From Candidatus Woesearchaeota archaeon (GTDB lineage: Archaea > Nanobdellota > Nanobdellia > Woesearchaeales > JBAZVA01), in the NCBI GenBank assembly GCA_041661165.1, contig JBAZVA010000003.1, positions 1 through 53,972 on the forward strand: a DNA stretch of 53,972 nt. The letters run 5' to 3'. This document shows positions 1,379 through 49,325 of this stretch, in pieces. Under the pieces are notes generated by a model. The model saw nothing but the letters and a program-made list of their open reading frames with translations. It had not been told where the DNA came from and did no database searches. Made by a program: the position numbers and the translations under genes. Each line of letters begins with the position of its first letter. The first letter of the stretch is position 1.

Positions 1379-1486
1379 AAACGTTACCGGCAAACAGAAC
1401 AGTATGCAGTAATAAAATAAGATCTTTAGACTATGTGATTTAGATTGGTACAATTATTAGTAATGAAAGCAAGGCCGGTAACGTTT
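1379..1486 (+). repeat. Clamp-hairpin repeat, type A, copy 1
   Basis: aaacgtt-ACCGGCAAACAGAACAGTATGCAG...TCTTTAGA...ATTATTAG...GCAAGGCCGGT-aacgttt. Shares the clamp and interior motifs with 11 other copies. Confidence 0.85.
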
Positions 1487-1561
1487 TGGATATATTTTAC
1501 CAAACAACAACGTTTAAAAATTCAAGAGATTATTATATAATTATTAAAAAGATGGTGAACG

Positions 1562-2503
1562 ATGACTGAAAGTAGAAAAAACACTACAAAATTAAGCAGT
1601 GCAGTTACTCCACAGATAAGTGCCGCTATTCAAAAGATTAGTGCTGCTGCTAAGTTAAACAATGCAATTACGCAGAGTTCTGTTCCAAAACAAAAGCTTA
1701 TTCATTCTTTAAAAACAAAATTACGAGAAAAAGTTAGAGAAAAAGTTGTAAAAGAGCACAACATTAAGAGAAAAGATGAATATCATGATAAAGAATTCAA
1801 TCCTCACAAAAGAGTTCCTTCAGGAATACCAGGGTTTGATGATTTAACAGAAGGTGGATTTGTTTTAAATTCTATAAATCTTCTTGGTGGAGATGCTGGT
1901 TCTGGTAAGAGTCTTTTTGCTATGCAGTTTATTATTAAAGGTATAGAACAATTTAATGAGAGTGGTGTTTACATTTCTTTTGAAGAATCAAAAATTGTTG
2001 TGTTCGAACGTATGAAAGAATATGGTTGGGATTTGCAAAAACTCGAAAACGAAAAAAAGTTTGTATATTTGCAATATACGCCGGAACAAGTAGAGCAAGT
2101 TTTAGAGTCAGGTGGTGGAATAATTGCGGATGTTGTTCAATCAATTGGTGCAAAGCGTGTTGTTTTTGATTCGCTTACTGCGTTTGCTTTTTTGTTTGAT
2201 TCAGAATTTAAGCAAAGAAGTTCTCTTTTATCGTTATTTGCCCTTATTAGAAAATGGGGTTGTACTGCAATTTTAATTGCTGAAGAAGAGCCTGATTTAA
2301 AGGCTCACAAGGCAAATATTATGGAATTCGAATCAGATTGCGATGTTCTAATTTACAATATTTTAATGGAAAATAAACGTGAACACGTAGTAGAAATATA
2401 CAAAATGCGTGGGACTAATCATTCAAGAAATATTTATCCATTAAAAATTGCAGATGATGGAATTTCTATAAATAAATCTGTGTATATTCAACAGATTAAT
2501 TAG
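1562..2503 (+). CDS. KaiC/RecA-superfamily ATPase, ArlH(FlaH)-like
   Basis: GIPGFDDLTEGG...LLGGDAGSGKSLFAMQF (Walker A) and a VVFDSLTAF Walker B-like strand. Lies immediately upstream of the ArlI/PilB-like ATPase. Has an N-terminal extension of about 85 aa. Confidence 0.75.
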   Translation: MTESRKNTTKLSSAVTPQISAAIQKISAAAKLNNAITQSSVPKQKLIHSLKTKLREKVREKVVKEHNIKRKDEYHDKEFNPHKRVPSGIPGFDDLTEGGFVLNSINLLGGDAGSGKSLFAMQFIIKGIEQFNESGVYISFEESKIVVFERMKEYGWDLQKLENEKKFVYLQYTPEQVEQVLESGGGIIADVVQSIGAKRVVFDSLTAFAFLFDSEFKQRSSLLSLFALIRKWGCTAILIAEEEPDLKAHKANIMEFESDCDVLIYNILMENKREHVVEIYKMRGTNHSRNIYPLKIADDGISINKSVYIQQIN

Positions 2504-2641
2504 TTATTTTACACATTATTCTGTGTAATTATGCGTATTTTTCTTATGTTGTTACAATGCAGTAGTTTCCAAATTTATGATTATTTCGTTTTAAAAACGT
2601 TTTTAAATACTATTATATAATCTATTATAAAAGGGGGGAAC

Positions 2642-5248: not shown

Positions 5249-5254
5249 TTTTAA

Positions 5255-5298
5255 GTAATTTGTTTTAAGAAAGTTTAAAGTGATTTGTTTTAAGAAAG
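5255..5298 (+). repeat. 19-bp direct repeat x2 (GTRATTTGTTTTAAGAAAG), 25-bp period
   Basis: 5255-5273 and 5280-5298 match at 18 of 19 positions. Followed by ATTTTGGCAA x2 at 5299-5308 and 5315-5324. Confidence 0.6.
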
Positions 5299-5356
5299 AT
5301 TTTGGCAAAGAATTATTTTGGCAATATGATATTTTATAGAAAAGTATCGTTTGTCG

Positions 5357-5494
5357 GTAAGTAATAAGTGTTTACTTCACCGGCAAACTACAAGTATTGA
5401 TGCTAAATATTTGCACATACTCCGTTGGCAAGAATGAGTGAAAATGATTGGCAATCGCAAGAGAGCCGGTTCGTGTGAACACTTATTATTTACA
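5357..5494 (+). mobile_element. Clamp-hairpin element, type B (MITE-like) with a 7-bp target-site duplication
   Basis: Arms GTAAGTAATAAGTGTTTAC / GTGAACACTTATTATTTAC enclose ACCGGCAAACTACAAG...GCTAAATATTTG...GAGAGCCGGT. Flanked by the direct repeat TTTGTCG (5350-5356 and 5495-5501). Confidence 0.8.
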
Positions 5495-5527
5495 TTTGTC
5501 GTATGTCTTTTTTGATTATAAATAAAT

Positions 5528-5578
5528 TAAGATTGTAGACGAACTAAAATTGTAAACAAACTAAGATTGTAAACAAAT
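5528..5578 (+). repeat. 17-bp tandem repeat x3 (TAARATTGTARACRAAY) upstream of the platform gene
   Basis: Units at 5528, 5545 and 5562 lie head to tail. A degenerate fourth unit spans 5579-5595. Confidence 0.7.
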
Positions 5579-5610
5579 TAAATTTTAAGATTAAATTTAT
5601 ATTAACCGTT

Positions 5611-6519
5611 GTGAATTTTACCATGGAAACTCCAAATAATCAACATATTCCTTTTATGCTGTTTAATGCAGAAAGATTAAAAAAATTAAAACGTTTAAGG
5701 GGAATAGCAAAACTTTTTTCTAAAATTATTCCTGAAGGAAACTCTTTAATGGAAAGAAGTGGTGTAAATTTATCTTGCGAAGATTACACAATTGGTGCAT
5801 TACTTTCCGGATTAGTTTATTTTTTATTATTTGGAGGAATGTTGTTTGTCGTATCAAATACTTTCAAGGGAAATATTGAAGAAGCACTTCGTGTTGGTGT
5901 AGGAGCGGGGTTTGGATTAGGATTTATGTTTTTCTTTTTAATGATGACTTATCCAAAAACACTTGCAAAGAAAAAAGCTGACATGGTTGATAGATATTTA
6001 ATTTATGCACTTAAAGATTTTTTAATGCAAATTTCTGCAGGTAATTCAGTTTATAATGCGTGTGTCGAGATAGCAAATGCAAATTATGGTCAGGTATCTA
6101 TAGAATTTGAAATTGTGGCAAAAAAGATTCAGACAGGGATGCCTGTAGAACAAGCATTGGAAGAAATTGCAAAACATAACGATTCAAAATATTTCAAGAA
6201 AGTTATTTGGCAGTTAGTTAATACAATACGTGCCGGTGCATCCTTAAAAGAAGCATTGTTTAGTATCATAAATGATCTTAATGAATCACAAAAATCAAAA
6301 ATAATAGGGTTTGCAAACGAACTTAATTTGTGGTCACTTATTTACATGCTTTTCGCAGTTGCCATTCCTTCTATTGGAACAACTATGATGGTAATATTAT
6401 CAGCATTTGGGGGTGCAAATTTATCTAGAGGTACATTTGTACTTTTTTTAGTTATTTGTGCATTTATTCAATTTGCAATAATCGGATTTATTAAAGCAAG
6501 AAGACCAGTTGTAGACTAA
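5611..6519 (+). CDS. Type II secretion system F-domain membrane protein (TadB-like / half of ArlJ-PilC)
   Basis: Single T2SF-like domain (YLIYALKDFLMQISAGNSVYNACVEIA...GMPVEQALEEIA) between TM helices. GTG start at 5611, alternative ATG at 5623. Confidence 0.7.
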   Translation: MNFTMETPNNQHIPFMLFNAERLKKLKRLRGIAKLFSKIIPEGNSLMERSGVNLSCEDYTIGALLSGLVYFLLFGGMLFVVSNTFKGNIEEALRVGVGAGFGLGFMFFFLMMTYPKTLAKKKADMVDRYLIYALKDFLMQISAGNSVYNACVEIANANYGQVSIEFEIVAKKIQTGMPVEQALEEIAKHNDSKYFKKVIWQLVNTIRAGASLKEALFSIINDLNESQKSKIIGFANELNLWSLIYMLFAVAIPSIGTTMMVILSAFGGANLSRGTFVLFLVICAFIQFAIIGFIKARRPVVD

Positions 6520-6536: not shown

Positions 6537-7529
6537 ATGAGATTAAGAGAAAGACTTTACATATCGATGACGAATATTATGCCAAAGAAATATGTAGAGT
6601 CAATTTCAAAAATGGCAAGATTTGCAGGTGAAGAAAAAAATATTCGTCAGTGGCTTGGCTCTATAGTTCTTTTAGGTGTAATTTTAATAGTTATATCTAT
6701 ATTTTTACCTTTTGCTATGTATGGAAGTTATTCTTTTAAATATCTCCCATTCGGAATAGCGGGATTATTTTTGTGTGCTTTTTTGGGATATGCTCTTTTA
6801 TATTTCAAAGTTCAAGCAAGAGTAGATGAGGCAGAAAATTATTTGCCTGATGTGTTGCAACTTATCGCAGTAAATTTACGTGCAGGTCTTACTCCATTTG
6901 CTGCAATTAAAATTGCCGGACGTGGTGAATTTGGTTGTCTTGCAGATGAACTTCGTCAATCAACAACAAAAGCATTAGGTCTTGAATCTTTTTCACAATC
7001 GCTTCTTTGTATTAAAGATAAAATTGATTCTCCGGTAGTGGAGCGTGTTATGAAACTTATTTCAACATCTTTAATGACTGGTGGGCATTTAGCAGGACTT
7101 TTAGAAGAATTATCAAACGATATTCGTTCAACTCAAGGTTTAAAGCGAGAAATGATAACAAAAACAAAAACATATACTGCTTTTATTTTATTTACTATTT
7201 TGTTTGGTACTCCTGTACTTTTGGCAATTTCTATACATTTTGTCACGATGATTACTGTCATGACTACTCAAAATGATATGAGTGGTTCGGCACAATTTGA
7301 TTTAGGATTCATGTCTCAAGGTATGACTATTACTCCTTCGTTTCTAATTATGTTATCTGTTATAATGCTTTCAGTTACTTGTCTTTTAGCATCAATGCTT
7401 ATGGGTGTAATAAATAAAGGAAATATGAAGTATGGGCTTAAGTATGCGCCATTTCTGATTCCTGCCGGAATTTTAATGTTTACTTTAGCAAGGTTTGCAG
7501 TTACTAATTTGTTTGCAACACTTGTTTAG
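6537..7529 (+). CDS. Type II secretion system F-domain membrane protein (TadC-like, second half of the platform)
   Basis: LPDVLQLIAVNLRAGLTPFAAIKIA...GGHLAGLLEELSNDIR is T2SF-like. Multiple TM helices. Adjacent to its paralogue. Confidence 0.7.
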   Translation: MRLRERLYISMTNIMPKKYVESISKMARFAGEEKNIRQWLGSIVLLGVILIVISIFLPFAMYGSYSFKYLPFGIAGLFLCAFLGYALLYFKVQARVDEAENYLPDVLQLIAVNLRAGLTPFAAIKIAGRGEFGCLADELRQSTTKALGLESFSQSLLCIKDKIDSPVVERVMKLISTSLMTGGHLAGLLEELSNDIRSTQGLKREMITKTKTYTAFILFTILFGTPVLLAISIHFVTMITVMTTQNDMSGSAQFDLGFMSQGMTITPSFLIMLSVIMLSVTCLLASMLMGVINKGNMKYGLKYAPFLIPAGILMFTLARFAVTNLFATLV

Positions 7530-7540
7530 TTTTTTTAATT

Positions 7541-7652
7541 AATATTTCTACCGGCCTTTGCTTGTATAGCAAATAATAGTACTAATATTATCACTTATTC
7601 TAAAGAAGTAAATTTGTTGCCAGATACTGTTTTGCTTGCCGGTAGAAATATT
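7541..7652 (-). repeat. Clamp-hairpin repeat, type A, copy 2
   Basis: Reverse complement reads aatatttct-ACCGGCAAGCAAAACAGTATCTGG...CTTCTTTAGAATAAG...ATTATTTGCTAT...GCAAAGGCCGGT-agaaatatt. Confidence 0.85.
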
Positions 7653-7708
7653 TAAAACACACTTGCAGACAAAGAAAACAATATAAACACAGTTAGTATT
7701 TTAATATT

Positions 7709-8896: not shown

Positions 8897-8941
8897 AATT
8901 ATACCTTGATTATTATATATAAAAATTTAACTATATTAGTT

Positions 8942-9062
8942 CTGTAGAAAAATTTAACCGGCAAGCAGAATTATTACACAATATGAATTAGTTCTTTAGA
9001 TTCGGTAATTACGATGGGTAAATGATATTACAAATTATGCAAGGCCGGTATATTTTCTACAG
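8942..9062 (+). repeat. Clamp-hairpin repeat, type A, copy 3
   Basis: ctgtagaaaa...ACCGGCAAGCAGAATTATTACAC...GTTCTTTAGATTC...TTATGCAAGGCCGGT...ttttctacag. Confidence 0.85.
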
Positions 9063-9894
9063 AGTTATATTTGTAATAATTGAAATAAACTGATTTAGAA
9101 TCATTATAAAAAATAAAAAGGGGCGAACTTTTTCTTTTGTGCTCCGCTCGCTTGCCCTCTTTTTGTCCTTTTGCTTAAATTTTGTTCTAATACTTCTCGT
9201 AACGTTTGCGAAACAATTCAACAAAAACGCCAGTTAACCTCTCAAATCAATTTTACAAAGCAAAATTTACCGATTTTGGTTTTTTAGGTTGATTCTTTGA
9301 TGCTATCCTTAATCTTTATTTTATTTATCCACTCACTATACTTGTTGTATCTATTGTACTGATTTTTTTCTCTTTTGTTTTTAATGTCTTTTGTTGTTTA
9401 AAATTTTCTTTTTTTTGTTTAATTTTTGCGTTCTGCTTTTTTTATTCAATTTTTTTGCAATATTGTACTGTTTTATTTTTGTTTTTTGGTTTAATTTTGT
9501 TCTTCACTATTCTTGCAACCCAGCCTGAATTTTGCCGAAGCTTTGTGATTGGCTGCAAACAGCTAACAAAAACAAGGTAATCACGTGGCCCAAGTTTTCA
9601 TATGTGTTTTTTTCGTTGAAAACATCGAATCATTCCTTTTGACGTTACAGAAAAAAACGTCTAAAGTCGAATCAAATGAGTTCATTTTGTTATTTTTTGG
9701 TAGGTTTGTGTTAAAACAATGTATGTATGAACTTATTTATAAACATTACCTTTTTTAGGGCACTAGTATGGTTATTAGTATACTTACTTTATATATGAAA
9801 TGCGTTTTATTACTTTTTTAAGCAAGTTATTGTGGTTTTTAGTATATTAAAAACAGTAGAAAACTTTAAAATAGGACATTTTGTTTGTTAATGT

Positions 9895-10095
9895 ATGTCA
9901 AGACTAAATAGCTCTCAAATACAAAGACGTGGCTCTTCTTCTACTTTGGACGAAATTGCAGGTAAAGAAACAGGTCGTTTTTCAAATAATCGTACGGGAA
10001 GATCATTAGATAGTAATTCGTCTTATTCTAATTCAGAAGATTCTTCATATAAACCAACTTGTTTCAAAAAAACATACTTATCTAATCATTCTTAA
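9895..10095 (+). CDS. Possible small Ser/Asn-rich disordered protein
   Basis: 66-aa ORF. A TATA-like CTTTAAAATA lies about 21-30 nt upstream. Composition is low complexity, so support is weak. Confidence 0.25.
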   Translation: MSRLNSSQIQRRGSSSTLDEIAGKETGRFSNNRTGRSLDSNSSYSNSEDSSYKPTCFKKTYLSNHS

Positions 10096-10104
10096 TTCTT
10101 TTAA

Positions 10105-10212
10105 TTTTTTTGCCAGCCTTGCATACATAGCTAATAATAGTACCAAAAATATTATTTATTCTAAAGAGCAAAATTAGTTGCTGCATACTGTTTTGCGTGC
10201 TGGCAAAGTAAA
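10105..10212 (-). repeat. Clamp-hairpin repeat, type A, copy 4
   Basis: Reverse complement reads GCCAGCACGCAAAACAGTATGCAGCAAC...GCTCTTTAGAATAAAT...ATTATTAGCTATGTATGCAAGGCTGGC. The clamp is changed on both arms (GCCAGC/GCTGGC). Confidence 0.85.
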
Positions 10213-10239
10213 TTTGAGAAATCATCTCCCAAACGAATA

Positions 10240-10975: not shown

Positions 10976-11416
10976 TTACTTCTTATTTAATTTTTTTCTT
11001 AATACAAACTCATATAAAATCAAGAATCCAATTCCTACACAAATCATTGAATCTGCAATATTGAATGTCGGAAATGTAGGGAAAAATGGCATAGGAATAT
11101 AATCAATAACATATCCTAAAAATACCCTGTCAATAAAATTTGACAATGCACCAAAGAAAATTAAAGTATATGAAACCCTAAGTGATAAATCATTTGTTTT
11201 GTAATACATATATCCTAATATTCCCATAATTAATATTGCTGCAACAAGTAAAATCGTACGTTCGTTTTGCATAATTCCAAAACTAGCGCCAAAATTTAAT
11301 ACTGGGTTGTGGATATTACTTTTAATTAATTGATCAAGAATAACTAGTCCAACACCTATAGAAACTATTTGCATTTCTACTTTTTTAATACAATCAGAAA
11401 AATTCATATTTACCAC
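10976..11416 (-). CDS. lspA: Lipoprotein signal peptidase (signal peptidase II)
   Basis: NFGASFG, GALSNFIDRV and FPTFNIADSMI (both catalytic Asp motifs). Four TM helices. Confidence 0.8.
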   Translation of the reverse strand: MVNMNFSDCIKKVEMQIVSIGVGLVILDQLIKSNIHNPVLNFGASFGIMQNERTILLVAAILIMGILGYMYYKTNDLSLRVSYTLIFFGALSNFIDRVFLGYVIDYIPMPFFPTFPTFNIADSMICVGIGFLILYEFVLRKKLNKK

Positions 11417-12895: not shown

Positions 12896-13822
12896 ATGAA
12901 AAAATTGAATAAATTAATACAAACATTAAAAAAAATGTCAAATATATCAAAAAATACAAAAACTTCTAAAAAAAAGGTAAGTAAGGTCGTTTCAAAGAAG
13001 ATAAATATTGGAAAAAATAAGATTATTCGTAAAAATAAAACTATTTCAACAAAAAACAGTATTCATAAGAATAAAGTTGTTCATAAAGATAATACTGTTC
13101 AAAGAGAGAAGATTATTCAAGAAAAGTCAGAAATACCTATGAAGATTTATTACGATTTATTTGAAAGCTATGGTCCACAAGGTTGGTGGCCACTTTTAGA
13201 ATGTGAAGGAGTAAATCCTACAAAATCAGGTTGTATAAATGGATATCATCCACATAATTATTCTTATCCAAGAGATGAATTTGAACAGTTCGAAATTTGT
13301 ATTGGAGCAATATTAACGCAAAATACTTCTTGGCCAAATGTTGAAAAGGCACTTGTAAATTTAAAAAAAATGAATGCGATTAATCCTAGTGCGATATTAT
13401 CTTTAAATGATGATGTCTTAAAAAATGCAATAAGGCCTGCAGGTTATTTTAATCAAAAAGCAAAAAAATTAAAAGTATTTTCAAAATTTTTCATGGACTT
13501 GGAGAAAAGAGAACCAAAAAGAGCAGAACTTTTAGATGTTTGGGGTGTTGGTCCTGAAACTGCTGATTCAATATTACTTTATGTGTATAAAAATCCAGTA
13601 TTCGTTGTTGATGCATATACAAAAAGAATATTTCAAAATATAGGTCTGATAAAAAAAGATGCTACTTATGACGAAATTAAAAGATTTTTTGAGAAAAATG
13701 TAAAATGGGATTATAAAATTTATCAAGAGTATCATGCATTGATTGTTGAGCATGCGAAAAGATATTATAACAAAGCGTCAGAATACAAAAAATGTCCTTT
13801 GTATAAAAAATATGAGAAATGA
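12896..13822 (+). CDS. Endonuclease III-related HhH-GPD family protein
   Basis: ILTQNTSWPNVEKA...LLDVWGVGPETADSILLY...VVDAYTKRI (HhH-GPD core). Lys-rich N-terminal extension of ~80 aa. Confidence 0.75.
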   Translation: MKKLNKLIQTLKKMSNISKNTKTSKKKVSKVVSKKINIGKNKIIRKNKTISTKNSIHKNKVVHKDNTVQREKIIQEKSEIPMKIYYDLFESYGPQGWWPLLECEGVNPTKSGCINGYHPHNYSYPRDEFEQFEICIGAILTQNTSWPNVEKALVNLKKMNAINPSAILSLNDDVLKNAIRPAGYFNQKAKKLKVFSKFFMDLEKREPKRAELLDVWGVGPETADSILLYVYKNPVFVVDAYTKRIFQNIGLIKKDATYDEIKRFFEKNVKWDYKIYQEYHALIVEHAKRYYNKASEYKKCPLYKKYEK

Positions 13823-13829
13823 TTTTCTT

Positions 13830-13950
13830 TGTAGAAACGTTCTACCGGCAAGCAGAAGTAGTAAGCAATCAGAATTTGTTCTTTATACTAAAGCAACTAA
13901 AATAAGAAAATAATATTGTAAGTTAATCAAGGCAAGTGTACGTTTCTACA
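13830..13950 (+). repeat. Clamp-hairpin repeat, type A, copy 5 (degenerate 3' clamp)
   Basis: tgtagaaacgt-tct-ACCGGCAAGCAGAAGTAGTAAGC...GTTCTTTATAC...AATCAAGGCAAGT-gt-acgtttctaca. Confidence 0.75.
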
Positions 13951-13962
13951 GAACAGAAATAA

Positions 13963-14670
13963 TTATTTCATTTTTCTTTTTACTAATCTATCAATTTGCT
14001 CAAACAAACTTCTTTGCTCTGCTTTTTCGTCAGTGAATGTAAATTTAGAAAGAATGTTTTGTTTCTTAATTTTTGCTATGTTTTCAGTTAAATTTTCTTT
14101 TAATTCAACAAAATTGATTTTGATTCTTGGAAGGTGCATCCATCTTACGTTAGACATATATTTTCTAACTTTATTTACTAGTTTTAATGTATATATTGCA
14201 TCAATTACAAAAATTCCATATGTTATTCCTAATATGAACGATATATTGCTTGAAGGTAAAAATGTAAGCCAGGTATTTAATCTTGGAAACAACGTGTAAT
14301 AAAAAGCAATACCACTTAATGCCCAAACCACACTTTGTAATATTGAAATATATCCTCTATAATTCATAAAATAATTTGAATAATCCCATAATACAATTTT
14401 ATAATAACTTAGAAGTATTCCTGTAATAAGTTCAAGAACAGTAACAAGTATTGTAAATATTAATACTGTTTTCCATAATGGCAATGTTAAAGAAAAAATA
14501 AGATATGCAATTATAGTTCCAAATCCATATATTGGTAGATATGGTCCAAAAAAGAGTCCGGGATTTACTAGTTTGTGAGATACAAAAATTGGTCTCCAAA
14601 ATAATTCTAAAATCCACCCCAAAATACTTCCAATGCCGAATATGAAAAGTAATTCATGTAAATTTAGCAT
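13963..14670 (-). CDS. Polytopic membrane protein, putative ABC-transporter type IV family (CmpB-like)
   Basis: IGSILGWILELFW...NPGLFFGPYLPIYGFG resembles that family's signature. About 6 TM helices. Confidence 0.55.
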   Translation of the reverse strand: MLNLHELLFIFGIGSILGWILELFWRPIFVSHKLVNPGLFFGPYLPIYGFGTIIAYLIFSLTLPLWKTVLIFTILVTVLELITGILLSYYKIVLWDYSNYFMNYRGYISILQSVVWALSGIAFYYTLFPRLNTWLTFLPSSNISFILGITYGIFVIDAIYTLKLVNKVRKYMSNVRWMHLPRIKINFVELKENLTENIAKIKKQNILSKFTFTDEKAEQRSLFEQIDRLVKRKMK

Positions 14671-14720
14671 ATTTTACCTTTTAGTTATATCTTGAATTTA
14701 GTTATATATTAAACAATGCG

Positions 14721-14850
14721 AAATAAGTGTTCATACGTACCGGCTCTCATACGTTTGCATGTAAGTTTAGTTCATCCTCACAAACGATGTATGAACAAAC
14801 ATTTAGCTTTAATAATTGTAATTGCCGGTTGAATGAACACTTATTATTTT
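14721..14850 (-). mobile_element. Clamp-hairpin element, type B, inserted at the 3' end of tRNA-Leu
   Basis: Reverse complement reads ACCGGCAATTACAATTATTAAAGCTAAATGTTTG...GAGAGCCGGT and aligns along its length with the copy at 5357-5494. Arms AATAAGTGTTCAT/ATGAACACTTATT. Flanked by the direct repeat CAATGCG(AAA) at 14714-14723 and 14851-14860. Confidence 0.8.
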
Positions 14851-14853
14851 CAA

Positions 14854-14937
14854 TGCGAAAGACGGGGTTCGAACCCGCGCAAGCACTAAGCTATACGGCC
14901 CTCAACCGTACCCGTTTGACCGCTCCGGCACTCTCGC
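14854..14937 (-). tRNA. tRNA-Leu (anticodon GAG), class II with a long variable arm; no encoded CCA, no intron
   Basis: Folded by hand: GCGAGAG/CTTTCGC acceptor, TACGG-TTGAGGG-CCGTA anticodon arm, variable arm AGC-TTAGT-GCT, T arm GCGGG-TTCGAAC-CCCGT, discriminator A. Confidence 0.85.
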
Positions 14938-14953
14938 GTAAGTCACATAATCT

Positions 14954-15120
14954 AGCTATATCTGAATCGTCTTTACCAGCAAACAGACTCCTCGTAAGAG
15001 GCAGCCAAATGCAATGCGGCCGTGTATACAGAATGTATATCCAGTTCCAATCGGAAATTCTAATGAATACAATTATTTGCACTATATGTGAAGGCTGGTA
15101 AAAAGACTTCAGATATAGCT
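14954..15120 (+). repeat. Clamp-hairpin repeat, type A long variant, copy 6
   Basis: 27-nt arms AGCTATATCTGAATCGTCTTTACCAGC / GCTGGTAAAAAGACTTCAGATATAGCT. The interior carries extra hairpins CCTCGTAAGAGG and GCAGCCAAATGCAATGCGGCCGT. Confidence 0.85.
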
Positions 15121-16367: not shown

Positions 16368-16383
16368 TTTTTTACATTTTATA

Positions 16384-16497
16384 AAATATTTCTACCTGCC
16401 TTTACATCTGATACTAATAATTGTGTTGATTAGAAGCACTGGAAGATATCCACATACATTATTCTGCATACCGTTCTGCTTGCCGGTAGAAATATTT
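16384..16497 (-). repeat. Clamp-hairpin repeat, type A, copy 7
   Basis: Reverse complement reads aaatatttct-ACCGGCAAGCAGAACGGTATGCAGAATAATG...CTTCCAGTGCTTCTAATC...ATTATTAG...GTAAAGGCAGGT-agaaatattt. Confidence 0.85.
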
Positions 16498-16500
16498 CTA

Positions 16501-16605
16501 ACTATATTGAATAAAAATAAAGAAAGTAATAAAAAACAAAGAAAATTATAAAAAAGAAAGTAATAAAAAATAAAATATTAAAAAAGAAATAATAAAAATA
16601 AAAAA
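16501..16605 (-). terminator. Oligo-T-rich tract downstream of the helicase stop (archaeal-type terminator region)
   Basis: On the minus strand there are consecutive T5-T7 runs. Contains an 18-nt direct repeat (16519-16536 and 16553-16570). Confidence 0.4.
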
Positions 16606-18120
16606 TTAATCAGTTCTTCTTCCTTGTCCCCAATCGCTTCTTGGAACTCCGCCGCCTTGGCTTCGTCCAGAACTTCTACCTTCGTGAGTTCTTGAAGGTC
16701 CTCGTGATGGGCCATCATGACTTCTAGGTGGTCTGCTCTCAGATCGTGGTCCACGACTTTCTCCGTCAGACGAACCAAAACGTGCTCTTGGTCTACTTTC
16801 GAATCTTGGGCCATCTCGTCTACCTTCTGAACTTCCAAATCTTCTTGGTCCGCCAGATGATCTTCCTCTTCCAAATCCACCACTGCTTCTTCCTCTAGAA
16901 CCGCCACCAAATGACTCTCTTTCCCTTTCAACGTGTTTGGTTTCAATTCTTTCAACGAATGGTGTGGCTTCTTTTGTTATGTCCATATTTTTGAATTCTC
17001 GTAGAACTCTTCCAAAGTTATCGTGATCTCTTGGTGCAAGTATGTTTATTGCTTTTCCGTCAGCTCCTGCTCTTGCAGTTCTTCCAATTCTGTGTATGTA
17101 TTGTTTTGATTCTTTTGGAATATCGTAATTATATACGTGAGTAACTCCTTTGATATCAAGACCTCTTGCAGCAACGTCAGTACAAACAAGCACATATACT
17201 TTTTGTGTGTGAAAACTTTCCATTATATGAGTTCTTCTCGCTTGTGTAAGTCCGCCGTGAATTGCTTCTGCTTCTATTCCGTTTCTTTGAAGATTCTTTG
17301 CAACGAAATCAGTGCTGTCTCTTGAATTACAAAATACCATTACAAGATTTGTTTTTTCATTCTTGATTAAATGTACAAGAGTAGAAAATTTAAGTCCATC
17401 AATAACATCGTAGTAAACCTGTTTTAATTTGCTTGGATCTACTTCTGCTTCTGCCATGATTCTTACTGGATTTGTCATGTGTTTTTTTGCAAAGTGAGTA
17501 ATTTCATTACACAATGTTGCAGAAAAGAATAAAGTTTGTCTTCCTTCTTTTGGGCATCTAGCAATTATTTGTTCAACATCGTGGGAAAAACCCATATCAA
17601 ACATTCTGTCTGCTTCATCAGCCACAAAAACTTTAACTTTTGACAAATTGATTGTTCTTCTTTCAATGTGATCAAGTACTCTTCCTGGAGTTCCTACAAC
17701 TACATCAGCAGATCTTAATTTGTCAATTTGAGGAACAATTGATACTCCTCCATAAACATCTACAATGTTTAGCGGTTTGTATTTTGCGAATTTTTTCAAT
17801 GTTTTTGTTATCTGCTCTGCAAGTTCTCTTGTAGGAGTCAAAACTATTGCTTGAATTCCTTTACCTTTCTCTGCATGCTGAATTATTCCGCATCCAAATG
17901 CAAGTGTCTTTCCTGAACCAGTTGACGAGCCTGCGATAACATCTTTTCCTGCAACTATATGAGGAATTGATTCTTGTTGTACAACACTCGGGTCTGTGAA
18001 ACCCTCATCTTTTATTGATTTTAGTATAGGTTCAATAATACCTAGTTGTTTAAATTTTTCCATATTTTCTTCACTAAATTTTGCGCTAAGAAATAGAACT
18101 CTAACAAATGTTTTTTGCAA
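16606..18120 (-). CDS. DEAD-box ATP-dependent RNA helicase with a ~110-aa Arg/Gly/Ser-rich C-terminal tail
   Basis: AGSSTGSGKT (motif I), PTRELA, VADEADRM (DEAD), SAT, HRIGRTARAG (motif VI). The true start is probably ATG 18063 (MEKFKQLGI...). Confidence 0.9.
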   Translation of the reverse strand: MQKTFVRVLFLSAKFSEENMEKFKQLGIIEPILKSIKDEGFTDPSVVQQESIPHIVAGKDVIAGSSTGSGKTLAFGCGIIQHAEKGKGIQAIVLTPTRELAEQITKTLKKFAKYKPLNIVDVYGGVSIVPQIDKLRSADVVVGTPGRVLDHIERRTINLSKVKVFVADEADRMFDMGFSHDVEQIIARCPKEGRQTLFFSATLCNEITHFAKKHMTNPVRIMAEAEVDPSKLKQVYYDVIDGLKFSTLVHLIKNEKTNLVMVFCNSRDSTDFVAKNLQRNGIEAEAIHGGLTQARRTHIMESFHTQKVYVLVCTDVAARGLDIKGVTHVYNYDIPKESKQYIHRIGRTARAGADGKAINILAPRDHDNFGRVLREFKNMDITKEATPFVERIETKHVERERESFGGGSRGRSSGGFGRGRSSGGPRRFGSSEGRRDGPRFESRPRARFGSSDGESRGPRSESRPPRSHDGPSRGPSRTHEGRSSGRSQGGGVPRSDWGQGRRTD

Positions 18121-20415: not shown

Positions 20416-20576
20416 CTCTGTCCGAAAAGTCTGGCGGCAAGCAAAACCTCGTTAGAGGTAGCTAAGTGCAACGCGACTACATTCCTACGCAAGTATGATT
20501 GTTTTTCCAATAGTTACAAAAATAAATATAATTATTCACGCAATTTATGCAAGGCCGCCAAAGACTTCGGACAGAG
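20416..20576 (+). repeat. Clamp-hairpin repeat, type A long variant, copy 8
   Basis: ctctgtccgaaaagtct-GGCGGCAAGCAAAACCTCGTTAGAGGTAGCTAAGTGCAACGCGACTAC...TTATGCAAGGCCGCC-aaagacttcggacagag. Confidence 0.85.
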
Positions 20577-21054: not shown

Positions 21055-21088
21055 ATATTAAATTGTTTTATTTTTTTATTTTCATTTT

Positions 21089-21124
21089 ATTTCTTTTTAA
21101 ATTTCTTTTTAAATTTCTTTTTTC
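21089..21124 (+). terminator. T-rich 12-bp tandem repeat (ATTTCTTTTTAA x3) downstream of the stop codon
   Basis: Units at 21089, 21101 and 21113. Oligo-T runs are typical archaeal termination signals. Confidence 0.4.
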
Positions 21125-21140
21125 TACTTGGTTTAAATAC

Positions 21141-21247
21141 AGTCTTTACCGGCAGGCAGAATAGTATGCAGAATAATATATGTGCATATCTTCCAGTGCT
21201 TCTAATTTAGACAATTATTTGCCTATATGTAAAGGCTGGTAAAGACT
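21141..21247 (+). repeat. Clamp-hairpin repeat, type A, copy 9
   Basis: agtcttt-ACCGGCAGGCAGAATAGTATGCAGAATAAT...CTTCCAGTGCTTCTAATT...ATTATTTGCCTAT...GTAAAGGCTGGT-aaagact. Confidence 0.85.
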
Positions 21248-21306
21248 TTTTTAGAGAGTCTTTTAAATACCAACATTTAATAAAAGAATATATTTTTTAG
21301 AGTTAT

Positions 21307-28218: not shown

Positions 28219-29124
28219 TTAAGGAAAAATACATTCTTTTATAGATTTATCATCTCTTAAACGTTTAAACACTGGTGCTCTTAATTTTTCATCCTTAGTA
28301 AATTCCAGATATTCAATTTCTGCAACATGCTTGGGCCTGACAAAAATTATCTCTTTAGGAAGATTTTTACTTTCGTCTGACAACTTATTTTTAATATCTT
28401 CTTTTATTTTTGACATACTTACTTCAAATGTATCAATAAATTTTTCAGAAAACCCTGTTCCGACTTTTCCGACATAAATGATTTTTTTGTTTTTGTACAA
28501 TCCGAGAGCAAGACTGGAAATTTTTCTTTTACCTTTTGTAAATCCTATTATAATGCAATCGATTGTATTTAGATTTTTTATCTTAAGCCAATTGTCAGAA
28601 CGTATACCTTCAAGATAAAAACTATTACTTTTTTTTGCTATGATTCCTTCCATTTTGCGTTTTTTCATGGAAAGAAATAATTTTTTTCCCTTCGTGGTAT
28701 AAAAAATTGTTTGAAGTGATTTGTTTTCAATTATTGTCTTATTGAGAATTTTTTTTCTTTGTAAAAGAGGTATATTTTTTAAATTTTTACCATTTTTGTT
28801 TAGGATGTCAAATACAACAAACACTGCTTCTTTTTCTCCTTCTTGAGTTTGTAAAATATGAAAATCTGGATTTCCTTCTTTGTTGTAAGAAACAATCTCT
28901 CCATCAAGAATACACGATTTTGCTTTTATTTTTGACAAATCAATATTTTCAAATCTTTTTGTAATATCTATGTTGTTTCTGCTCTTAAATATATTTCTCT
29001 TATTTTTATTAAAATATAATATTGCTCTGATACCATCTAATTTTGGCTCATAAATATGTCCTTTCGTATTTAAAACATCAATATGACTTTTATCATTCAC
29101 AAGTTTTGCAAGCATTGGTTTCAT
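28219..29124 (-). CDS. ligD: ATP-dependent DNA ligase (stand-alone LigD ligase-domain type)
   Basis: YEPKLDGIRA (motif I, KxDG), ILDGEIV, VFDIL, EGIIAK. Confidence 0.85.
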   Translation of the reverse strand: MKPMLAKLVNDKSHIDVLNTKGHIYEPKLDGIRAILYFNKNKRNIFKSRNNIDITKRFENIDLSKIKAKSCILDGEIVSYNKEGNPDFHILQTQEGEKEAVFVVFDILNKNGKNLKNIPLLQRKKILNKTIIENKSLQTIFYTTKGKKLFLSMKKRKMEGIIAKKSNSFYLEGIRSDNWLKIKNLNTIDCIIIGFTKGKRKISSLALGLYKNKKIIYVGKVGTGFSEKFIDTFEVSMSKIKEDIKNKLSDESKNLPKEIIFVRPKHVAEIEYLEFTKDEKLRAPVFKRLRDDKSIKECIFP

Positions 29125-29125
29125 A

Positions 29126-30079
29126 TTACGATTCTCCTTTTTTAGTTTCTTTATTAATGTCTTTTTTTAGTTTTTTCATGATTTTGTTTAATGATTTGGA
29201 ATTTTTGTAAAAATATTTTAAAGGGTCACTTTTTGTTTGCATTCTTTTTAATACGTCATTTATATCGAAACTATCAGGATTTGTTTTTCTAAGTTCTTCC
29301 CAAAAAATTGGAAGTGCCACTGTCGCAGTCAAAGTTGCTCTTACAGAATAAGGAGAGATAGATGTTTGTTGAGGGGAATTTCTGTTAATATCAATGAAAA
29401 TCTTATTAATACGTTTATTTTTTGAAAGTTCTGTCGTTATATTTTTTGGATTATCCTGTTCTATTACTTTTGCAATCTTTAATGCAAACTCTCTTACTTT
29501 GTCGTTTGAATTTTTAGGTTTTATGGGTACTATTATGTGATATCCTTTTTTTCCTGTAGCTAATAAATACGGATTTAATCCAATATCAGTCAAAAGCTGT
29601 TTTAATTTTAGAACTGTGTTTTTTAATAATACACTATTTTTTTCTGACGGATCAATATCAAACACCATTTTGTCAGGATATCCTAAATTTTCAGTCGTAC
29701 TTGTCCATGTATGTATTTCACCAACTTGCGATGCGACATAAATAAGACACTCTTTATTATTACATATTATATAATCTACTTCCCCTTCTTTTTTTTTGAT
29801 TTTTATGTGTTCTATCCATGATGGAAATGAATTTGGTTTATTTTTCTGGTAAAATCCCTCTTTATCTGCACCGTTTGGGAAACGATACATGACGATGGGT
29901 CTTTTTCTTATAGAATGAAGCATGATATTTGCAATTTTTTTATAATACTCAACATATTCCCGTTTTGTAAATTTTTTAAATATTTTTTTTTCGGAATTAG
30001 AAATATTAATTATGTCGTCATCTTTTCTTTTGTATTTTTTATCCATATGATTATCCGTTTGAGAAGTCATACTTATCAT
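29126..30079 (-). CDS. NHEJ polymerase/primase (LigD PolDom-like, archaeo-eukaryotic primase fold)
   Basis: MVFDIDP, GKKGYHIIVPI and SPYSVR are motifs of LigD polymerase domains. Confidence 0.85.
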   Translation of the reverse strand: MISMTSQTDNHMDKKYKRKDDDIINISNSEKKIFKKFTKREYVEYYKKIANIMLHSIRKRPIVMYRFPNGADKEGFYQKNKPNSFPSWIEHIKIKKKEGEVDYIICNNKECLIYVASQVGEIHTWTSTTENLGYPDKMVFDIDPSEKNSVLLKNTVLKLKQLLTDIGLNPYLLATGKKGYHIIVPIKPKNSNDKVREFALKIAKVIEQDNPKNITTELSKNKRINKIFIDINRNSPQQTSISPYSVRATLTATVALPIFWEELRKTNPDSFDINDVLKRMQTKSDPLKYFYKNSKSLNKIMKKLKKDINKETKKGES

Positions 30080-30587
30080 CCTTCATCTTAATAATAAGCC
30101 AGTTTTTTTTGTTTTCATTAAACTTGGTATTGACTAACGCATAATTTCCTTTCAAAACTCTTCCTTTAAGATTCACTTCAATCTGTCCCTGTAAATAAGA
30201 TTCTTTCATACTGATTTTTCTTATGTTTCTGTAATTTCCTTTATCCCATATTTTAACTTTTCCCGCTCCGTATTCTCCTTTTGGAATCTGTCCTTGAAAA
30301 TCCGCATATTTAATCGGGTGGTCTTCTGTTTCTACAGCAAGATGTTTTTCAGAAACAGTCGTCGGAATTCCTTTCGGGACCGCCCACGATCTTAATACTC
30401 CGTCTATTTCTAGTCTAAAATCGTAATGGAGTCTTGTAGCATTATGTTCCTGAACCACGAATATTGTTCCTTTTCTTTTCTTGACAGCATCAGTTTCTTT
30501 TGGTTCGTTGGTCTTTTCAAAATCTCTTTTTTCCTTGTACGTACTTAATTTTGAGGATTTAATTGATGATTCGTTTGATGATTTCAT
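30051..30587 (-). CDS. LigD 3'-phosphoesterase-domain protein
   Basis: FVVQEHNATRLHYDFRLEIDGVLRSWAVPKGIP. Confidence 0.85.
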   Translation of the reverse strand: MKSSNESSIKSSKLSTYKEKRDFEKTNEPKETDAVKKRKGTIFVVQEHNATRLHYDFRLEIDGVLRSWAVPKGIPTTVSEKHLAVETEDHPIKYADFQGQIPKGEYGAGKVKIWDKGNYRNIRKISMKESYLQGQIEVNLKGRVLKGNYALVNTKFNENKKNWLIIKMKDDKYDFSNG

Positions 30588-31360
30588 AGGCTCGCCTTCA
30601 AACTTTCAACAAGATTTTTCTCTTTTTTGATTTTTTTACTTTCAGCTTTTACTTCAATTAATTCTCCTTTTGTTTTCTTTTTGATAAGTTTTAGAAGTTC
30701 ATCTCTGAAAGTATCCTTAAAATCGGTGATATCAAATTCTTCCTTTTCAAGTTTTCCAATTAACTGTTTTGCAAGTTCAAGTTCTTGGGTTGAAAGTTTT
30801 GGTTTGTTATCTATAAAATCTATATCTTCAATATTTCTAATCTCATAAGCGTAATTTAATGTCGTTAAAAGAAGACCATTCTTATATGATTCTATTGCAC
30901 ACACATATTCTTTTTCACGCATGACAAATCTTCCAATCGCGGCTTTCGCAGACTGCTGTAAAACCTCTTTTAATAAAAAATATGCTTTCTCATTCTTCTT
31001 GTCCGGTCCGATAAAATAAGTGTGGTCAAAATATATAGGATCAATTTGTCTCGAATGAATTATCTCAACAATGTTAATAGTGTCAGTTTTTCCTGGTTTT
31101 AGATTCTGAAGTTCCTCTTTTTCAAATATATAAAATTTATTTTTTGATATTTCTATGCCTTTTACGATATCGTCCCATGAAACTTCTTTGTCGTGCTTTG
31201 AACACCATCTTTTATTTTTTATAGGGACATTATCTTTTTTATGAAGAAGCCTAAATCCAACCTTGTTTTGTGATTCTACTGCAGAATAAAGTCTTACAGG
31301 AATATTAACAAGTCCAAACGAAATTGATCCGGTCCAAATTGTTTTCATATTTTCACCCAA
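30584..31360 (-). CDS. ku: Ku DNA end-binding protein
   Basis: IWTGSISFGLVNIPVRLYSA...FRLLHK. Overlaps the phosphoesterase gene by 4 nt. Confidence 0.9.
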   Translation of the reverse strand: MGENMKTIWTGSISFGLVNIPVRLYSAVESQNKVGFRLLHKKDNVPIKNKRWCSKHDKEVSWDDIVKGIEISKNKFYIFEKEELQNLKPGKTDTINIVEIIHSRQIDPIYFDHTYFIGPDKKNEKAYFLLKEVLQQSAKAAIGRFVMREKEYVCAIESYKNGLLLTTLNYAYEIRNIEDIDFIDNKPKLSTQELELAKQLIGKLEKEEFDITDFKDTFRDELLKLIKKKTKGELIEVKAESKKIKKEKNLVESLKASL

Positions 31361-31442: not shown

Positions 31443-31835
31443 TTATAATGTTGCGTTAAAATTAAGTGCCATTGAATTAATACAATATCTTTTTCCGGTC
31501 GGTTTTGGACCATCATTAAAAATGTGACCTAAATGGCTTTTACAATTTCCGCATATAACTTCTGTTTTTACCATTCCCTGACTATAATCCTTGACAAATT
31601 CAACCGCATCTTTTTTTGCATCATAAAAACTGGGCCAACCGCATGAAGAATCGAATTTTACATTAGAACTAAAAATTTCATTACTGCAGGCAGCACAAAC
31701 ATACATCCCTTTTTTGTCAAATTTAATATATTTACCGCTAAAGGGAGCTTCCGTTCCTTTCTCTCTTAAAACACGGTATTGCTCAGGAGTCAATTCCTTT
31801 TTCCATTGATCATCAGTTTTTTTCATTTTACTCAC
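31443..31835 (-). CDS. msrB: Peptide methionine-R-sulfoxide reductase
   Basis: [11 protein letters not shown]...CGWPSF...[16 protein letters not shown]. Confidence 0.9.
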
Positions 31836-33565: not shown

Positions 33566-33666
33566 TTTTTACCAGCCTTGATTTGATATCTAAATATTTG
33601 TGCTAATTAGAAGCTACTATTGGAATCACATCATAATCTGCATACAAATTCGTTTGCTGGTAAAAA
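33566..33666 (-). repeat. Clamp-hairpin repeat, type A, copy 10
   Basis: Reverse complement reads ttttt-ACCAGCAAACGAATTTGTATGCAGATTATG...GTAGCTTCTAATTAG...AATATTTAG...AATCAAGGCTGGT-aaaaa. Confidence 0.85.
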
Positions 33667-42307: not shown

Positions 42308-42310
42308 ACA

Positions 42311-43538: not shown

Positions 43539-43697
43539 ACTGTCCGAAAAGTCAGGCGGCAAGCAAAACCTCGCAGAGGTGGCCAAGTGCAACGCGGCTA
43601 CATTATGCAGCAATTTAATAACTCTTTAAAATAAATGACTTTATCGGCACCATTATTTACGCGAGTACAATAAAGGCCGCTAAAGACTTCGGACAGT
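43539..43697 (+). repeat. Clamp-hairpin repeat, type A long variant, copy 11
   Basis: actgtccgaaaagtca-GGCGGCAAGCAAAACCTCGCAGAGGTGGCCAAGTGCAACGCGGCTACATTATGCAG...AATAAAGGCCGCT-aaagacttcggacagt. Confidence 0.85.
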
Positions 43698-44642: not shown

Positions 44643-44710
44643 GTCACACCCTCTTTTTATTTTACGCTAATGATTAAAATAATATAAAATAAAAAAATCA
44701 ATACGATTGT

Positions 44711-47344: not shown

Positions 47345-47431
47345 CCTTTTTTTGAATTATAATTATTTTCTTGATTAATACAAATCAACCAATACGGACT
47401 GAATCTAAATTAAATATGAAAAAAATAAAAT

Positions 47432-47932: not shown

Positions 47933-48066
47933 ATTTTGTTCCCCCTGAACTTAAATTTTTTACTTTTTGCACCTACGTGTGCTATAACACTAAAAAACTC
48001 ACTTTTCTTTATAAATTTATGGGTAGTAAATGGGTAGTGAAAATGATAAAAAAATAATGTTACTTT

Positions 48067-49107
48067 CTAAAAAGGCAAATCTTGCTCCACAGGAATACTT
48101 GCTCTTTTTCTTGCATCTTCTCTTAATCCTTTGTGAAAATTAATACGTTTAGAATACAAGTCATTGTGTCTTAAATTTACATCCCTTACAAATCTGTCAA
48201 TGCTATATCTGTTACTTTCAATAGCTTCAACAACTCCGTTTGATTCATTTTGCCAATTTCTAAAATCAGACAAAAGTTCCGGAGTATAATTGGAACTGAA
48301 TTCTTTTTTGTTTAAAGTAACATATAATGAATAAGGATTTTCATAATAATCTCCTTTTTTCATAAAATGAGTTTCATCAAAAGCGAAAGGTGTTTTTTTA
48401 TTCCAAGGATTGCTTCTAGAATGCATTGATGACAATTCTACATCATAAGGAAAACTGACGAGTGTTGTTGGTGTAAGAATTATACATTTTGGAACTTTTA
48501 TATTTTTTGCAGAGTTTTCTAATCTGTCTGAAAAGAAAGCATCTCCTTTAGGTTGTTCATCAACGTATTCTTTCCAAGCTTGAAATTGTTCTAGCATTTG
48601 ATTTTCTTTTTCTCTTAATAGTTCAAGATATTTTTGTCTATCCATTGTACGTGCATCAGTTGCATACACATCAAAACCGTCACATGCATAACCATATTTA
48701 TGACTTCTGTGTGTTGTGCCATGTTCCATCATTCTTATTTTTCCGTCATCTCTTGATGCGATTTCTTTTGCATGTTTTGCAATAGATTCAAGACTATCAT
48801 AATTTGAATCAGGACCAAATGCTATGGCTTTTACAAAAGGAATTTCTTCTTTGACAAAATGAACAGTATCTTTTTCAATTTTTTCAATAATACTTTTTGA
48901 TTCTTTGAACCATTTTGGTTTATCTTTACTATTATCTCTAATATCTGATGTTAAAAAACCGTTAAAAACTAATCCTACTCCTGCGTCACTTGCTACGTAT
49001 AGAATTCCGTCTCTTTGAAATAAAGTAGGTTCTTTTCCACTAATTTCTTTTACTACATCTAGAACAGTATCAACAATATATGTCATAGTATTACCCCCTA
49101 TAAACAA
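48067..49107 (-). CDS. Hypothetical protein
   Basis: 346-aa ORF with ordinary composition. Likely start is MTYIVD at 49086. Confidence 0.45.
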   Translation of the reverse strand: MFIGGNTMTYIVDTVLDVVKEISGKEPTLFQRDGILYVASDAGVGLVFNGFLTSDIRDNSKDKPKWFKESKSIIEKIEKDTVHFVKEEIPFVKAIAFGPDSNYDSLESIAKHAKEIASRDDGKIRMMEHGTTHRSHKYGYACDGFDVYATDARTMDRQKYLELLREKENQMLEQFQAWKEYVDEQPKGDAFFSDRLENSAKNIKVPKCIILTPTTLVSFPYDVELSSMHSRSNPWNKKTPFAFDETHFMKKGDYYENPYSLYVTLNKKEFSSNYTPELLSDFRNWQNESNGVVEAIESNRYSIDRFVRDVNLRHNDLYSKRINFHKGLREDARKRASIPVEQDLPF

Positions 49108-49207
49108 TCGACTAAAATTAAATAATCAATTAATTTGGTTAAATATCCTATAACTACTCTCCAATTACATCTTTATAAATTTATCTTATTTTTGGGTTTC
49201 CTAACTC

Positions 49208-49325
49208 CACATTACTGGCAAACAGAACATTATGCAGCAATTATGTTTGTTCTTTAGAATAAGTAATTATATTGGTACTATTATTAGCTATAACAATGAA
49301 GGCCGGTAAAGACTTCTTTAATGTG
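49208..49325 (+). repeat. Clamp-hairpin repeat, type A, copy 12 (left outer arm truncated)
   Basis: cacatt-ACTGGCAAACAGAACATTATGCAGCAATTATG...GTTCTTTAGAATAAG...ATTATTAGCTAT...AATGAAGGCCGGT-aaagacttctt-taatgtg. Confidence 0.85.

Follow-up and report, generated by a model that had tools for sequence, protein, structure and literature searches.

A foldback repeat in the intergenic spacers of a woesearchaeal contig is probably a lineage-specific family of miniature mobile elements

The genomes of DPANN archaea are tiny and streamlined and repeats are expected to be purged from them, yet in one stretch of such a genome a foldback repeat fills about 3.5% of the DNA. What kind of element is this repeat, and how does it persist there? 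We analyzed a 53,972-nt stretch (hereafter the window) comprising positions 1-53,972 of the forward strand of contig JBAZVA010000003.1, assembly GCA_041661165.1, from a Candidatus Woesearchaeota archaeon (GTDB lineage Archaea; Nanobdellota; Nanobdellia; Woesearchaeales; JBAZVA01). The window has a GC content of 28-31% and carries archaeal housekeeping genes, including those for a CDC48 protein with two AAA domains, a DEAD-box helicase and a type IV pilus ATPase; its host is an uncultured AT-rich DPANN archaeon, a relative of the Woesearchaeota/Nanoarchaeota. The explanation that we favor, with a probability of roughly 0.6, is that the repeat is a lineage-specific family of foldback-type MITEs (miniature inverted-repeat transposable elements), that is, miniature non-autonomous mobile DNA and not structured RNA.

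A preliminary description of the window had reported fourteen copies of the repeat, nine on the plus strand and five on the minus strand. The 24-nt motif given there, searched with up to three mismatches, had four matches in the window and none in 100 shuffled sequences, and an nhmmer profile made from nine copies recovered 12. A profile made from all 35 copies that we used for the alignments, the arm consensus and the length statistics of the family recovered exactly 14 copies in the window (E ≤ 4e-4, with no other match at E < 1), and these were split nine to five between the strands as first counted. The copies are 101-167 bp long and, when bounded by their inverted repeats, add up to 1,892 bp or 3.5% of the window; the earlier hand count (about 1.77 kb, 3%) was slightly low. 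This amounts to 14 copies per 54 kb, or about 259 copies per Mb. No copy in the window overlaps a credible coding sequence, as had been claimed, the sole overlapping open reading frame (ORF), 14727-15101, being a spurious frame that runs across a tRNA-Leu gene and two copies. Scattered among housekeeping genes, the copies occupy short intergenic spacers and face either way. The usual position is 0-20 nt past a stop codon, in some cases with an overlap, and 40-80 nt ahead of the following start codon, and the copies take up the only dispensable part of these very short spacers.

Each unit consists of a terminal inverted repeat of ~20-26 bp flanking a non-palindromic interior of ~80 nt that contains conserved blocks. 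The GC "clamp" is the innermost 6 bp of the terminal inverted repeat. When the 35 copies were aligned on the clamp, the consensus inverted repeat read CTGTCCGAAAAGTCTTT-ACCGGC ... GCCGGT-AAAGACTTTTCGGACAG or, with the outermost base included, 5'-(C/G)TGTCCGAAAAGTCTTT-ACCGGC ... GCCGGT-AAAGACTTTTCGGACA(G/C)-3'. The ends of the element are of either a CTGTCCGAAAAGTCTTTACCGGC type or a AATAAGTGTTCA type; AAATATTTCT, CTGTAGAAA and AATAAGTGTTCA are among the arm variants of the subfamilies, and AAGCAGAAC and GCAAGG are sequence blocks of the element alongside the clamp. The outer stems had been described as specific to each copy. We found instead a single long terminal inverted repeat from which the arms have diverged, with a consensus across the 35 copies and with arms shared within subfamilies. 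Every copy has arms of 10-26 bp (median, 17 paired bases). Since no solo arm or empty palindrome of either arm type was found elsewhere in the window, the arms are part of the element and not a pre-existing target. The two copies of a strongly divergent subtype C, 5357-5493 (+) and 14722-14845 (-), share the clamp ACCGGC...GCCGGT and the core length with the other copies and have different arms.

The clamp-to-clamp length was 91-96 nt in 28 copies and 125-129 nt in six copies with an extra module. This optional module of ~33-35 nt occurs in two forms. The first is a two-hairpin insert after AAGCAAAA, in which CCTC-loop-GAGG is followed by a stem of 5-6 bp whose changes are compensated and whose loop is the 11-nt AAGTGCAACGC (AAATGCAATGC in copy 14954-15120), while the second is a ~35-nt insert before AAGGCC. 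We also found an internally deleted copy (L051:1378-1474), a tandem pair (L037:6427-6689) and a chimera, copy 16368-16516, that has the arms of copy 7528-7663 and, over 73 nt, the interior of copy 21134-21253 (89% identity); the chimera implies recombination or gene conversion between copies. The element has no coding capacity. A small-peptide or type I toxin reading was considered for the ATG-initiated frame (MQQL...) seen in some copies and was rejected, because the alignments show this short frame to be interrupted by stops and 1-nt indels in others.

The clamp pairs listed in the preliminary description, including the G.U cases (21148 and 49214), were all as given, and the claim that the clamp helix changes in a compensated way also held. 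Arm covariation was higher than in any shuffle (0 of 500 reached the observed score), and slid partners scored far lower. Across the inner 10 bp of the arms, 87.9% of cells were paired and 7 of the 10 pairs had double-sided changes; the two arms within one copy were more alike than arms from different copies. The compensated changes are thus real, but by themselves they are not evidence of RNA, since symmetric inverted repeats maintained for a DNA-level mechanism give the same pattern. Transition mismatches of the G.U and A.C kinds were equally frequent (14:13 in the gapped arms; 13:15 in the inner 10 bp, binomial p = 0.85), so there was no sign of selection on one transcribed strand, which should favor G.U. 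Single copies folded better than their shuffles, with z about -3 in six of the eight tested, but through the terminal stem only. RNAalifold predicted no structure beyond the clamp for all 14 copies, for 28 cores or for subfamilies A1 and A2, and an exhaustive scan for stacks of at least 4 pairs with at least 70% pairing returned the clamp only. The hairpin is therefore essentially the terminal stem alone, and no interior helix is conserved. The orientation of copies relative to co-directional neighbor genes was unbiased (12 same, 7 opposite). Rfam searches at the gathering threshold and at E ≤ 5 gave no match on any copy, in agreement with the earlier failure to recognize a named RNA family; the only relevant match was the tRNA-Leu gene. 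Readings of the aligned copies, by eye, as K-turn, bulge-helix-bulge, H/ACA or Y-RNA-like structures were rejected, as the bulges are not conserved and no GA/AG tandem stands in register. Overall, the signature looks like one at the level of DNA rather than that of a strand-specific RNA.

We scanned 185,579 species genomes with the pattern ACCGGCARRCARAA-N60-90-AAGGCYGGT and obtained 36 single matches, all of them bacterial and none in an archaeon, which we took as chance. Two scans of IMG/VR gave 2 and 77 matches, again all chance, none being confirmed by the profile. A scan of JGI metagenomes with the same kind of pattern identified ten AT-rich contigs, every one from sample Ga0172379. One of these was 99.9% identical to window positions 423-1716, indicating that Ga0172379 contains the window's own population. 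The remaining nine contigs carried 23 further copies, all intergenic, among genes for MetRS, ThrRS, Cdc6, the PolD small subunit, diphthamide synthase, FtsY and ScpA. In a collection of 5.8 billion proteins, the nearest relatives of the window's CDC48 were only about 60% identical to it and carried Woesearchaeota or Nanoarchaeota labels; the contigs of these nearest relatives (L058-L060; 40-50% GC) had no copy and no comparable repeat. So far, the family has been seen only in a single, poorly sampled DPANN lineage. It appears uncatalogued, with no match in Rfam and no occurrence in GTDB representative genomes or IMG/VR.

Three of the features by which MITEs are known are present: short non-coding units, terminal inverted repeats and many dispersed intergenic copies. 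The family also has the traits of mobile DNA, including subfamilies, modular variants, chimeric, truncated and tandem copies, and both orientations. Among the three readings that the preliminary description had left open, a mobile element and an element of the Correia/ERIC kind both fit these observations, while a structured small RNA or 3'-untranslated-region element found no support. In the mechanism that we propose, a transposase supplied in trans would have recognized the symmetric ends and spread the copies. The enzyme was probably of the DDE type with staggered cuts, as the 7-bp and 10-bp duplications at the type C copies suggest. Complementary arms would be preserved because a copy stops propagating once its ends no longer match, and intrastrand hairpin repair or recombination between copies possibly contributes. 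Insertions that spared promoters and coding sequence would have survived, and the copies would then have diversified into subfamilies, recombined with one another and been retained where harmless. With pairwise identities of 65-74%, the copies are presumably old and apparently fixed in the sampled population. A terminator or insulator effect of the hairpin, if any, would be secondary.

Direct signs of transposition were sought in the flanks. A 7-bp direct repeat, TTTGTCG, abuts the 19-bp arms of copy 5357-5493, and a 10-bp repeat, TTTCGCATTG, flanks copy 14722-14845, its upstream unit being made of the last 7 nt of tRNA-Leu plus 3 nt. The latter is the apparent signature of a staggered-cut insertion beside the tRNA gene. 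Flanking repeats of 7-8 bp occur at several more copies (7643, L055:5146, L042:5001 and L055:4578), in imperfect register with the arm ends. A 9-bp duplication, TTTAAATAC, around copy 21134-21253 was not counted because its left repeat may be a diverged arm segment. Taken together, the flanking-repeat results are compatible with transposition and are not proof of it.

Several observations weigh against a MITE family. Type A/B copies with perfect arms (e.g., 20416-20576 and 43539-43697) have no flanking direct repeats, and candidate target-site duplications are convincing for the two type C copies only. The mean best flanking repeat was 3.09 nt against 2.84 nt in permuted flanks (p about 0.15), and flanking repeats of at least 7 nt numbered 14 against about 9, a weak enrichment. 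At pairwise identities of only 65-74%, few 8-bp duplications are expected to have come through intact. No transposase was found among the 47 ORFs of the window (Pfam, plus NCBIfam for the ten ORFs without a Pfam match), as previously stated, or among 20 ORFs on related contigs, about 100 kb in total, and no autonomous partner with matching ends is known. The comparison of filled with empty sites, also proposed earlier, yielded no empty site: four other assemblies of the same strain (from ENA ERZ27249449, Logan SRR18595301 and JGI Ga0172379) were collinear with the window at 99.7-100% identity, look-ups of four window proteins for strain variants returned only identical, collinear contigs, and the nearest non-self relatives, at about 60% CDC48 identity, were not syntenic with the window. 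The pattern of conservation also counts on this side. The copies, though old and lodged in a compact genome, have held their core at 91-96 nt and their clamps intact. Conservation is highest not at the tips of the repeat but in its innermost part, which is unusual for the ends of a DDE transposon. The distribution of substitutions over the length of the element is strongly non-uniform (dispersion indices of 2.7 and 1.9; p = 7e-16 and 5e-7), which could reflect host-level selection rather than mere parasitism.

This last point leads to the possibility that the copies, while mobile in origin, are now selected as cis-acting DNA or RNA hairpins, with possible roles as bidirectional terminators or insulators, 3'-end stabilizers or protein-binding sites. 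A role of this kind has been suggested for the bacterial REP, ERIC and Correia elements. Such an exaptation, which does not exclude a mobile origin, is in our view possible but unlikely. The constancy of the core and the nearly always intact clamps despite 26-35% interior divergence speak for it, as does the alternation of variable stretches with conserved blocks (ACCGGC-AAnCAnAAC-AGTAT, TCTTTAG-AAT-AA, ATTAT and AAGGCCGGT). So do the position of copies directly behind a stop codon and a short way upstream of the following promoter, in a genome whose spacers are otherwise minimal, the near-invariant 11-nt module loop on its compensating stem, and the fixation of all copies across the four other same-strain assemblies. 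However, selection on propagating master copies alone gives the same conservation pattern, and our data cannot separate it from host-level selection after exaptation as the source of the block-wise conservation. The lack of orientation bias and of a G.U excess makes a strand-specific RNA role unlikely, archaeal termination relies on oligo-T tracts and not on hairpins, and the family is absent from all relatives sampled. The conserved blocks and the tight length control nevertheless leave some room for exaptation by the host. That the repeats are not mere parasites but ~250 domesticated hairpin modules per 1-Mb genome, preserved by selection, is a doubtful proposition, kept alive by the fixed core, the block-wise conservation and the clamps that remain intact at this divergence. 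If it were true, the long closing stem would present conserved single-stranded blocks together with optional hairpins bearing the 11-nt loop, and a host protein would read the modules at the DNA or RNA level, punctuating transcription units.

The retention of complementarity while the arm sequence drifts would also be expected if an HUH/Y1 enzyme moved the element as a single-stranded hairpin, recognizing the folded DNA and not its sequence, as in the models of REPINs moved by RAYT and PATEs moved by the IS200/IS605 TnpA. Types A and B are without target duplications, and the best-conserved parts, namely the clamp and the adjacent unpaired AAGCA/GCAAG blocks, have the layout of a structure plus tag that such an enzyme would call for. 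We nevertheless hold this to be improbable. The arms are not themselves palindromic REP units, the copies lack a same-orientation hairpin near each end (the PATE layout), and the type C copies carry the 7-bp and 10-bp direct repeats. A strand-specific single-stranded DNA hairpin should moreover tolerate G.T and not A.C, a bias that we did not see, and none of the 67 ORFs examined was a Y1/HUH gene.

The covarying closing helix and the better-than-shuffled folding could also be read as those of a large family of paralogs, each of them a gene for a structured small RNA with its own transcription, for instance of the guide or scaffold type, in which the extra hairpin modules would resemble the optional expansion segments of some structured RNAs. 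In 8 of 35 copies a TATA-like box stands ~40-45 nt upstream of the clamp (peak at 41-45 nt), which at first favored such genes. The far side had similar numbers (4+4 in the equivalent bins), however, and the individual boxes proved mostly to be promoters of adjacent genes, so that the hypothesis of own promoters was rejected. As the folding signal comes from the terminal stem only, interior pairs are not conserved, G.U and A.C mismatches are equal and orientation is mixed, we regard small RNA genes as very unlikely; there is no Rfam family and no relative in other genomes, and no precedent is known for an RNA gene family at about 259 copies per Mb. Least probable is the insertion of a ~92-nt clamp-to-clamp core into the center of pre-existing palindromes with target-derived outer stems, a reading implied by the earlier description of the stems as copy-specific, for although outer arms differ between copy groups with a common core and one copy joins the arms of one subfamily to the interior of another, the arms share a consensus across 35 copies and the window has no empty palindrome of either arm type.

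The positions of the fourteen copies and of the candidate target-site duplications are given in Table 1.

Table 1. Repeat copies and flanking direct repeats in the window
Feature	Position	Strand	Details
Copy, subtype A1	1372-1494	+	Clamp ACCGGC 1386-1391 / GCCGGT 1474-1479; core 94 nt
Left 7-bp direct repeat TTTGTCG (candidate target-site duplication)	5350-5356	+	Abuts copy 5357-5493
Copy, divergent subtype C	5357-5493	+	19-bp arms GTAAGTAATAAGTGTTTAC / GTGAACACTTATTATTTAC; core 92 nt
Right 7-bp direct repeat TTTGTCG	5495-5501	+	1 nt beyond right arm of copy 5357-5493
Copy, subtype A1 interior	7528-7663	-	AAATATTTCT arms; begins at stop codon of gene 6537-7529
Copy, subtype A1 (diverged)	8933-9070	+	CTGTAGAAAA arms
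Copy, subtype A1	10103-10214	-	Clamp GCCAGC/GCTGGC
Copy, subtype A1 (diverged)	13818-13964	+	3' clamp degraded to GCAAGT; left arm overlaps stop codon of gene 12896-13822
Downstream 10-bp direct repeat TTTCGCATTG (candidate target-site duplication)	14714-14723	-	Flanks copy 14722-14845
Copy, divergent subtype C	14722-14845	-	Directly 3' of tRNA-Leu; core 91 nt
Upstream 10-bp direct repeat TTTCGCATTG	14851-14860	-	First 7 nt = 3' end of tRNA-Leu (14854-14937)
Copy with 5' two-hairpin module	14954-15120	+	Core 125 nt; clamp ACCAGC/GCTGGT; 26-bp terminal stem
Copy, subtype A2 interior, chimera	16368-16516	-	Interior 89% to copy 21134-21253; arms of copy 7528-7663
Copy with 5' module	20416-20576	+	Core 127 nt; clamp GGCGGC/GCCGCC; full-length arms CTCTGTCCGAAAAGTCT / AAAGACTTCGGACAGAG
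Copy, subtype A2	21134-21253	+	Clamp ACCGGC/GCTGGT, one G.U
Copy, subtype A2	33566-33666	-	Clamp ACCAGC/GCTGGT; arms short
Copy with 5' module	43539-43697	+	Core 127 nt; clamp GGCGGC/GCCGCT, one G.U
Copy, subtype A1	49208-49325	+	Clamp ACTGGC/GCCGGT, one U.G; left outer arm replaced

Some further features of the spacers were noted. The only tRNA gene of the window (Leu-GAG, minus strand) sits between copies 14722-14845 and 14954-15120. A TATA-like GATATAG ~25 nt upstream of it lies inside the outer arm of copy 14954-15120, and this arm may now supply the promoter of the tRNA gene. In the E-value search the tRNA scored 46.7 bits against a gathering score of 29, yet it gave no match at the gathering threshold, which is a filter artefact. 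Between the inverted copies 8933-9070 (+) and 10103-10214 (-) there is a stretch of ~1 kb (9071-10100) without an ORF of at least 80 aa and without an Rfam match, T-rich and of low complexity at 9300-9520; a decayed gene is one possible origin, a unit resembling a composite transposon another. A 17-nt repeat, ATTGTAGACGAACTAAA, stands in 3-4 units in the spacer upstream of gene 5611-6519 (5515-5582), and A-rich/T-rich tandems with periods of ~12-19 nt lie beside two copies (16510-16592 and 21075-21121). In the same-strain ENA contig k141_930688 (L140), we observed 11 clustered substitutions in the DEAD-box helicase gene (window 17662-17773), near the contig end; the contig otherwise equals the window save for two substitutions in copy 13818-13964. 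These differences reflect either strain recombination or an assembly chimera.

The gene content of the window also includes a cluster for non-homologous end joining (28219-31360, minus strand) that encodes Ku and, as separate genes, the phosphoesterase, Prim-Pol and ligase parts of LigD; MsrA (27690-28178) and MsrB (31443-31835) lie on either side of it. Such a cluster is notable for a reduced DPANN genome. Bacterial-type lipoprotein maturation genes are present in this archaeon, for signal peptidase II (Peptidase_A8; 10976-11416) and Lgt (23982-24830), with a second Lgt on a related contig (L055:2437-3219), and a bacterial-type MutS is encoded at 51435-53927.

The repeat family explains the fragmented short-read assemblies of this organism. 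It can serve as a lineage-specific marker in binning, and it offers a natural setting in which to test whether selection retains old MITEs in compact genomes. Should a function such as transcriptional punctuation or protein binding prove true, the family would be an archaeal counterpart of the REP, ERIC and Correia elements.

The closest architectural parallels to the repeat are found in bacteria. Correia elements (CREE/NEMIS) of Neisseria are intergenic, 100-155 bp long, with ~26-bp terminal inverted repeats that form a long hairpin. Their hundreds of copies account for a few per cent of a small genome and fall into length subtypes owing to internal segments. They have a TA duplication on their flanks as well as an IHF site and outward promoters, and no autonomous partner is known for them. 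The repeat resembles them in size, intergenic site, terminal-repeat hairpin, length subtypes and the lack of a known autonomous partner, whereas its host is an archaeon and no TA duplication was seen, so that only the architecture is comparable. ERIC/IRU elements are enterobacterial imperfect palindromes of ~127 bp that occur in transcribed intergenic regions in either orientation, and no mobilizing enzyme is known for them or for the repeat. Like the repeat with its 33-35 nt modules, they also come in longer forms, in which extra sequence is inserted at fixed internal sites, but ERIC is palindromic over most of its length, while pairing in the repeat is confined to the terminal 20-26 bp. We see no grounds for assigning the repeat to the Correia or ERIC sequence families, and the likeness would be one of architecture.

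Rickettsia palindromic elements (RPE), of ~100-150 bp, have likewise spread in a reduced genome and are palindromic repeats of similar size, but they often lie in frame within genes, whereas all copies here are intergenic. REP/REPIN sequences resemble the repeat as abundant intergenic hairpin repeats near gene ends whose halves are kept complementary. A REPIN combines two inverted REP palindromes of 20-40 bp, which have a GTAG or CGTC head and enclose a spacer of poor conservation, while the arms of the repeat are not self-palindromic, have no conserved tetranucleotide head and enclose a spacer with conserved blocks; no RAYT/Y1 transposase gene was present among the scanned ORFs of the window. 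PATEs derived from IS200/IS605 have distinct subterminal hairpins at both ends, no terminal inverted repeat and no target duplication, in contrast to the single hairpin formed here from true terminal inverted repeats and to the direct repeats at type C copies. Integron attC sites, with R''/R' boxes (RYYYAAC...GTTRRRY), stand in one-orientation cassette arrays next to intI, whereas the clamp here is ACCGGC/GCCGGT and the copies lie in both orientations among housekeeping genes. The prokaryotic MITEs catalogued in a recent census (PMC11602168) are likewise short, non-autonomous, intergenic, taxon-specific and bounded by terminal inverted repeats. In that census, woesearchaeal and altiarchaeal genomes are reported as the most MITE-dense archaea, at 105-146 per Mb (PMC11602168). 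The density of the repeat, its main distinguishing trait, is about 259 copies per Mb and 3.5% of the DNA and exceeds these top archaeal values, and mobile DNA would then still be able to flood streamlined DPANN genomes.

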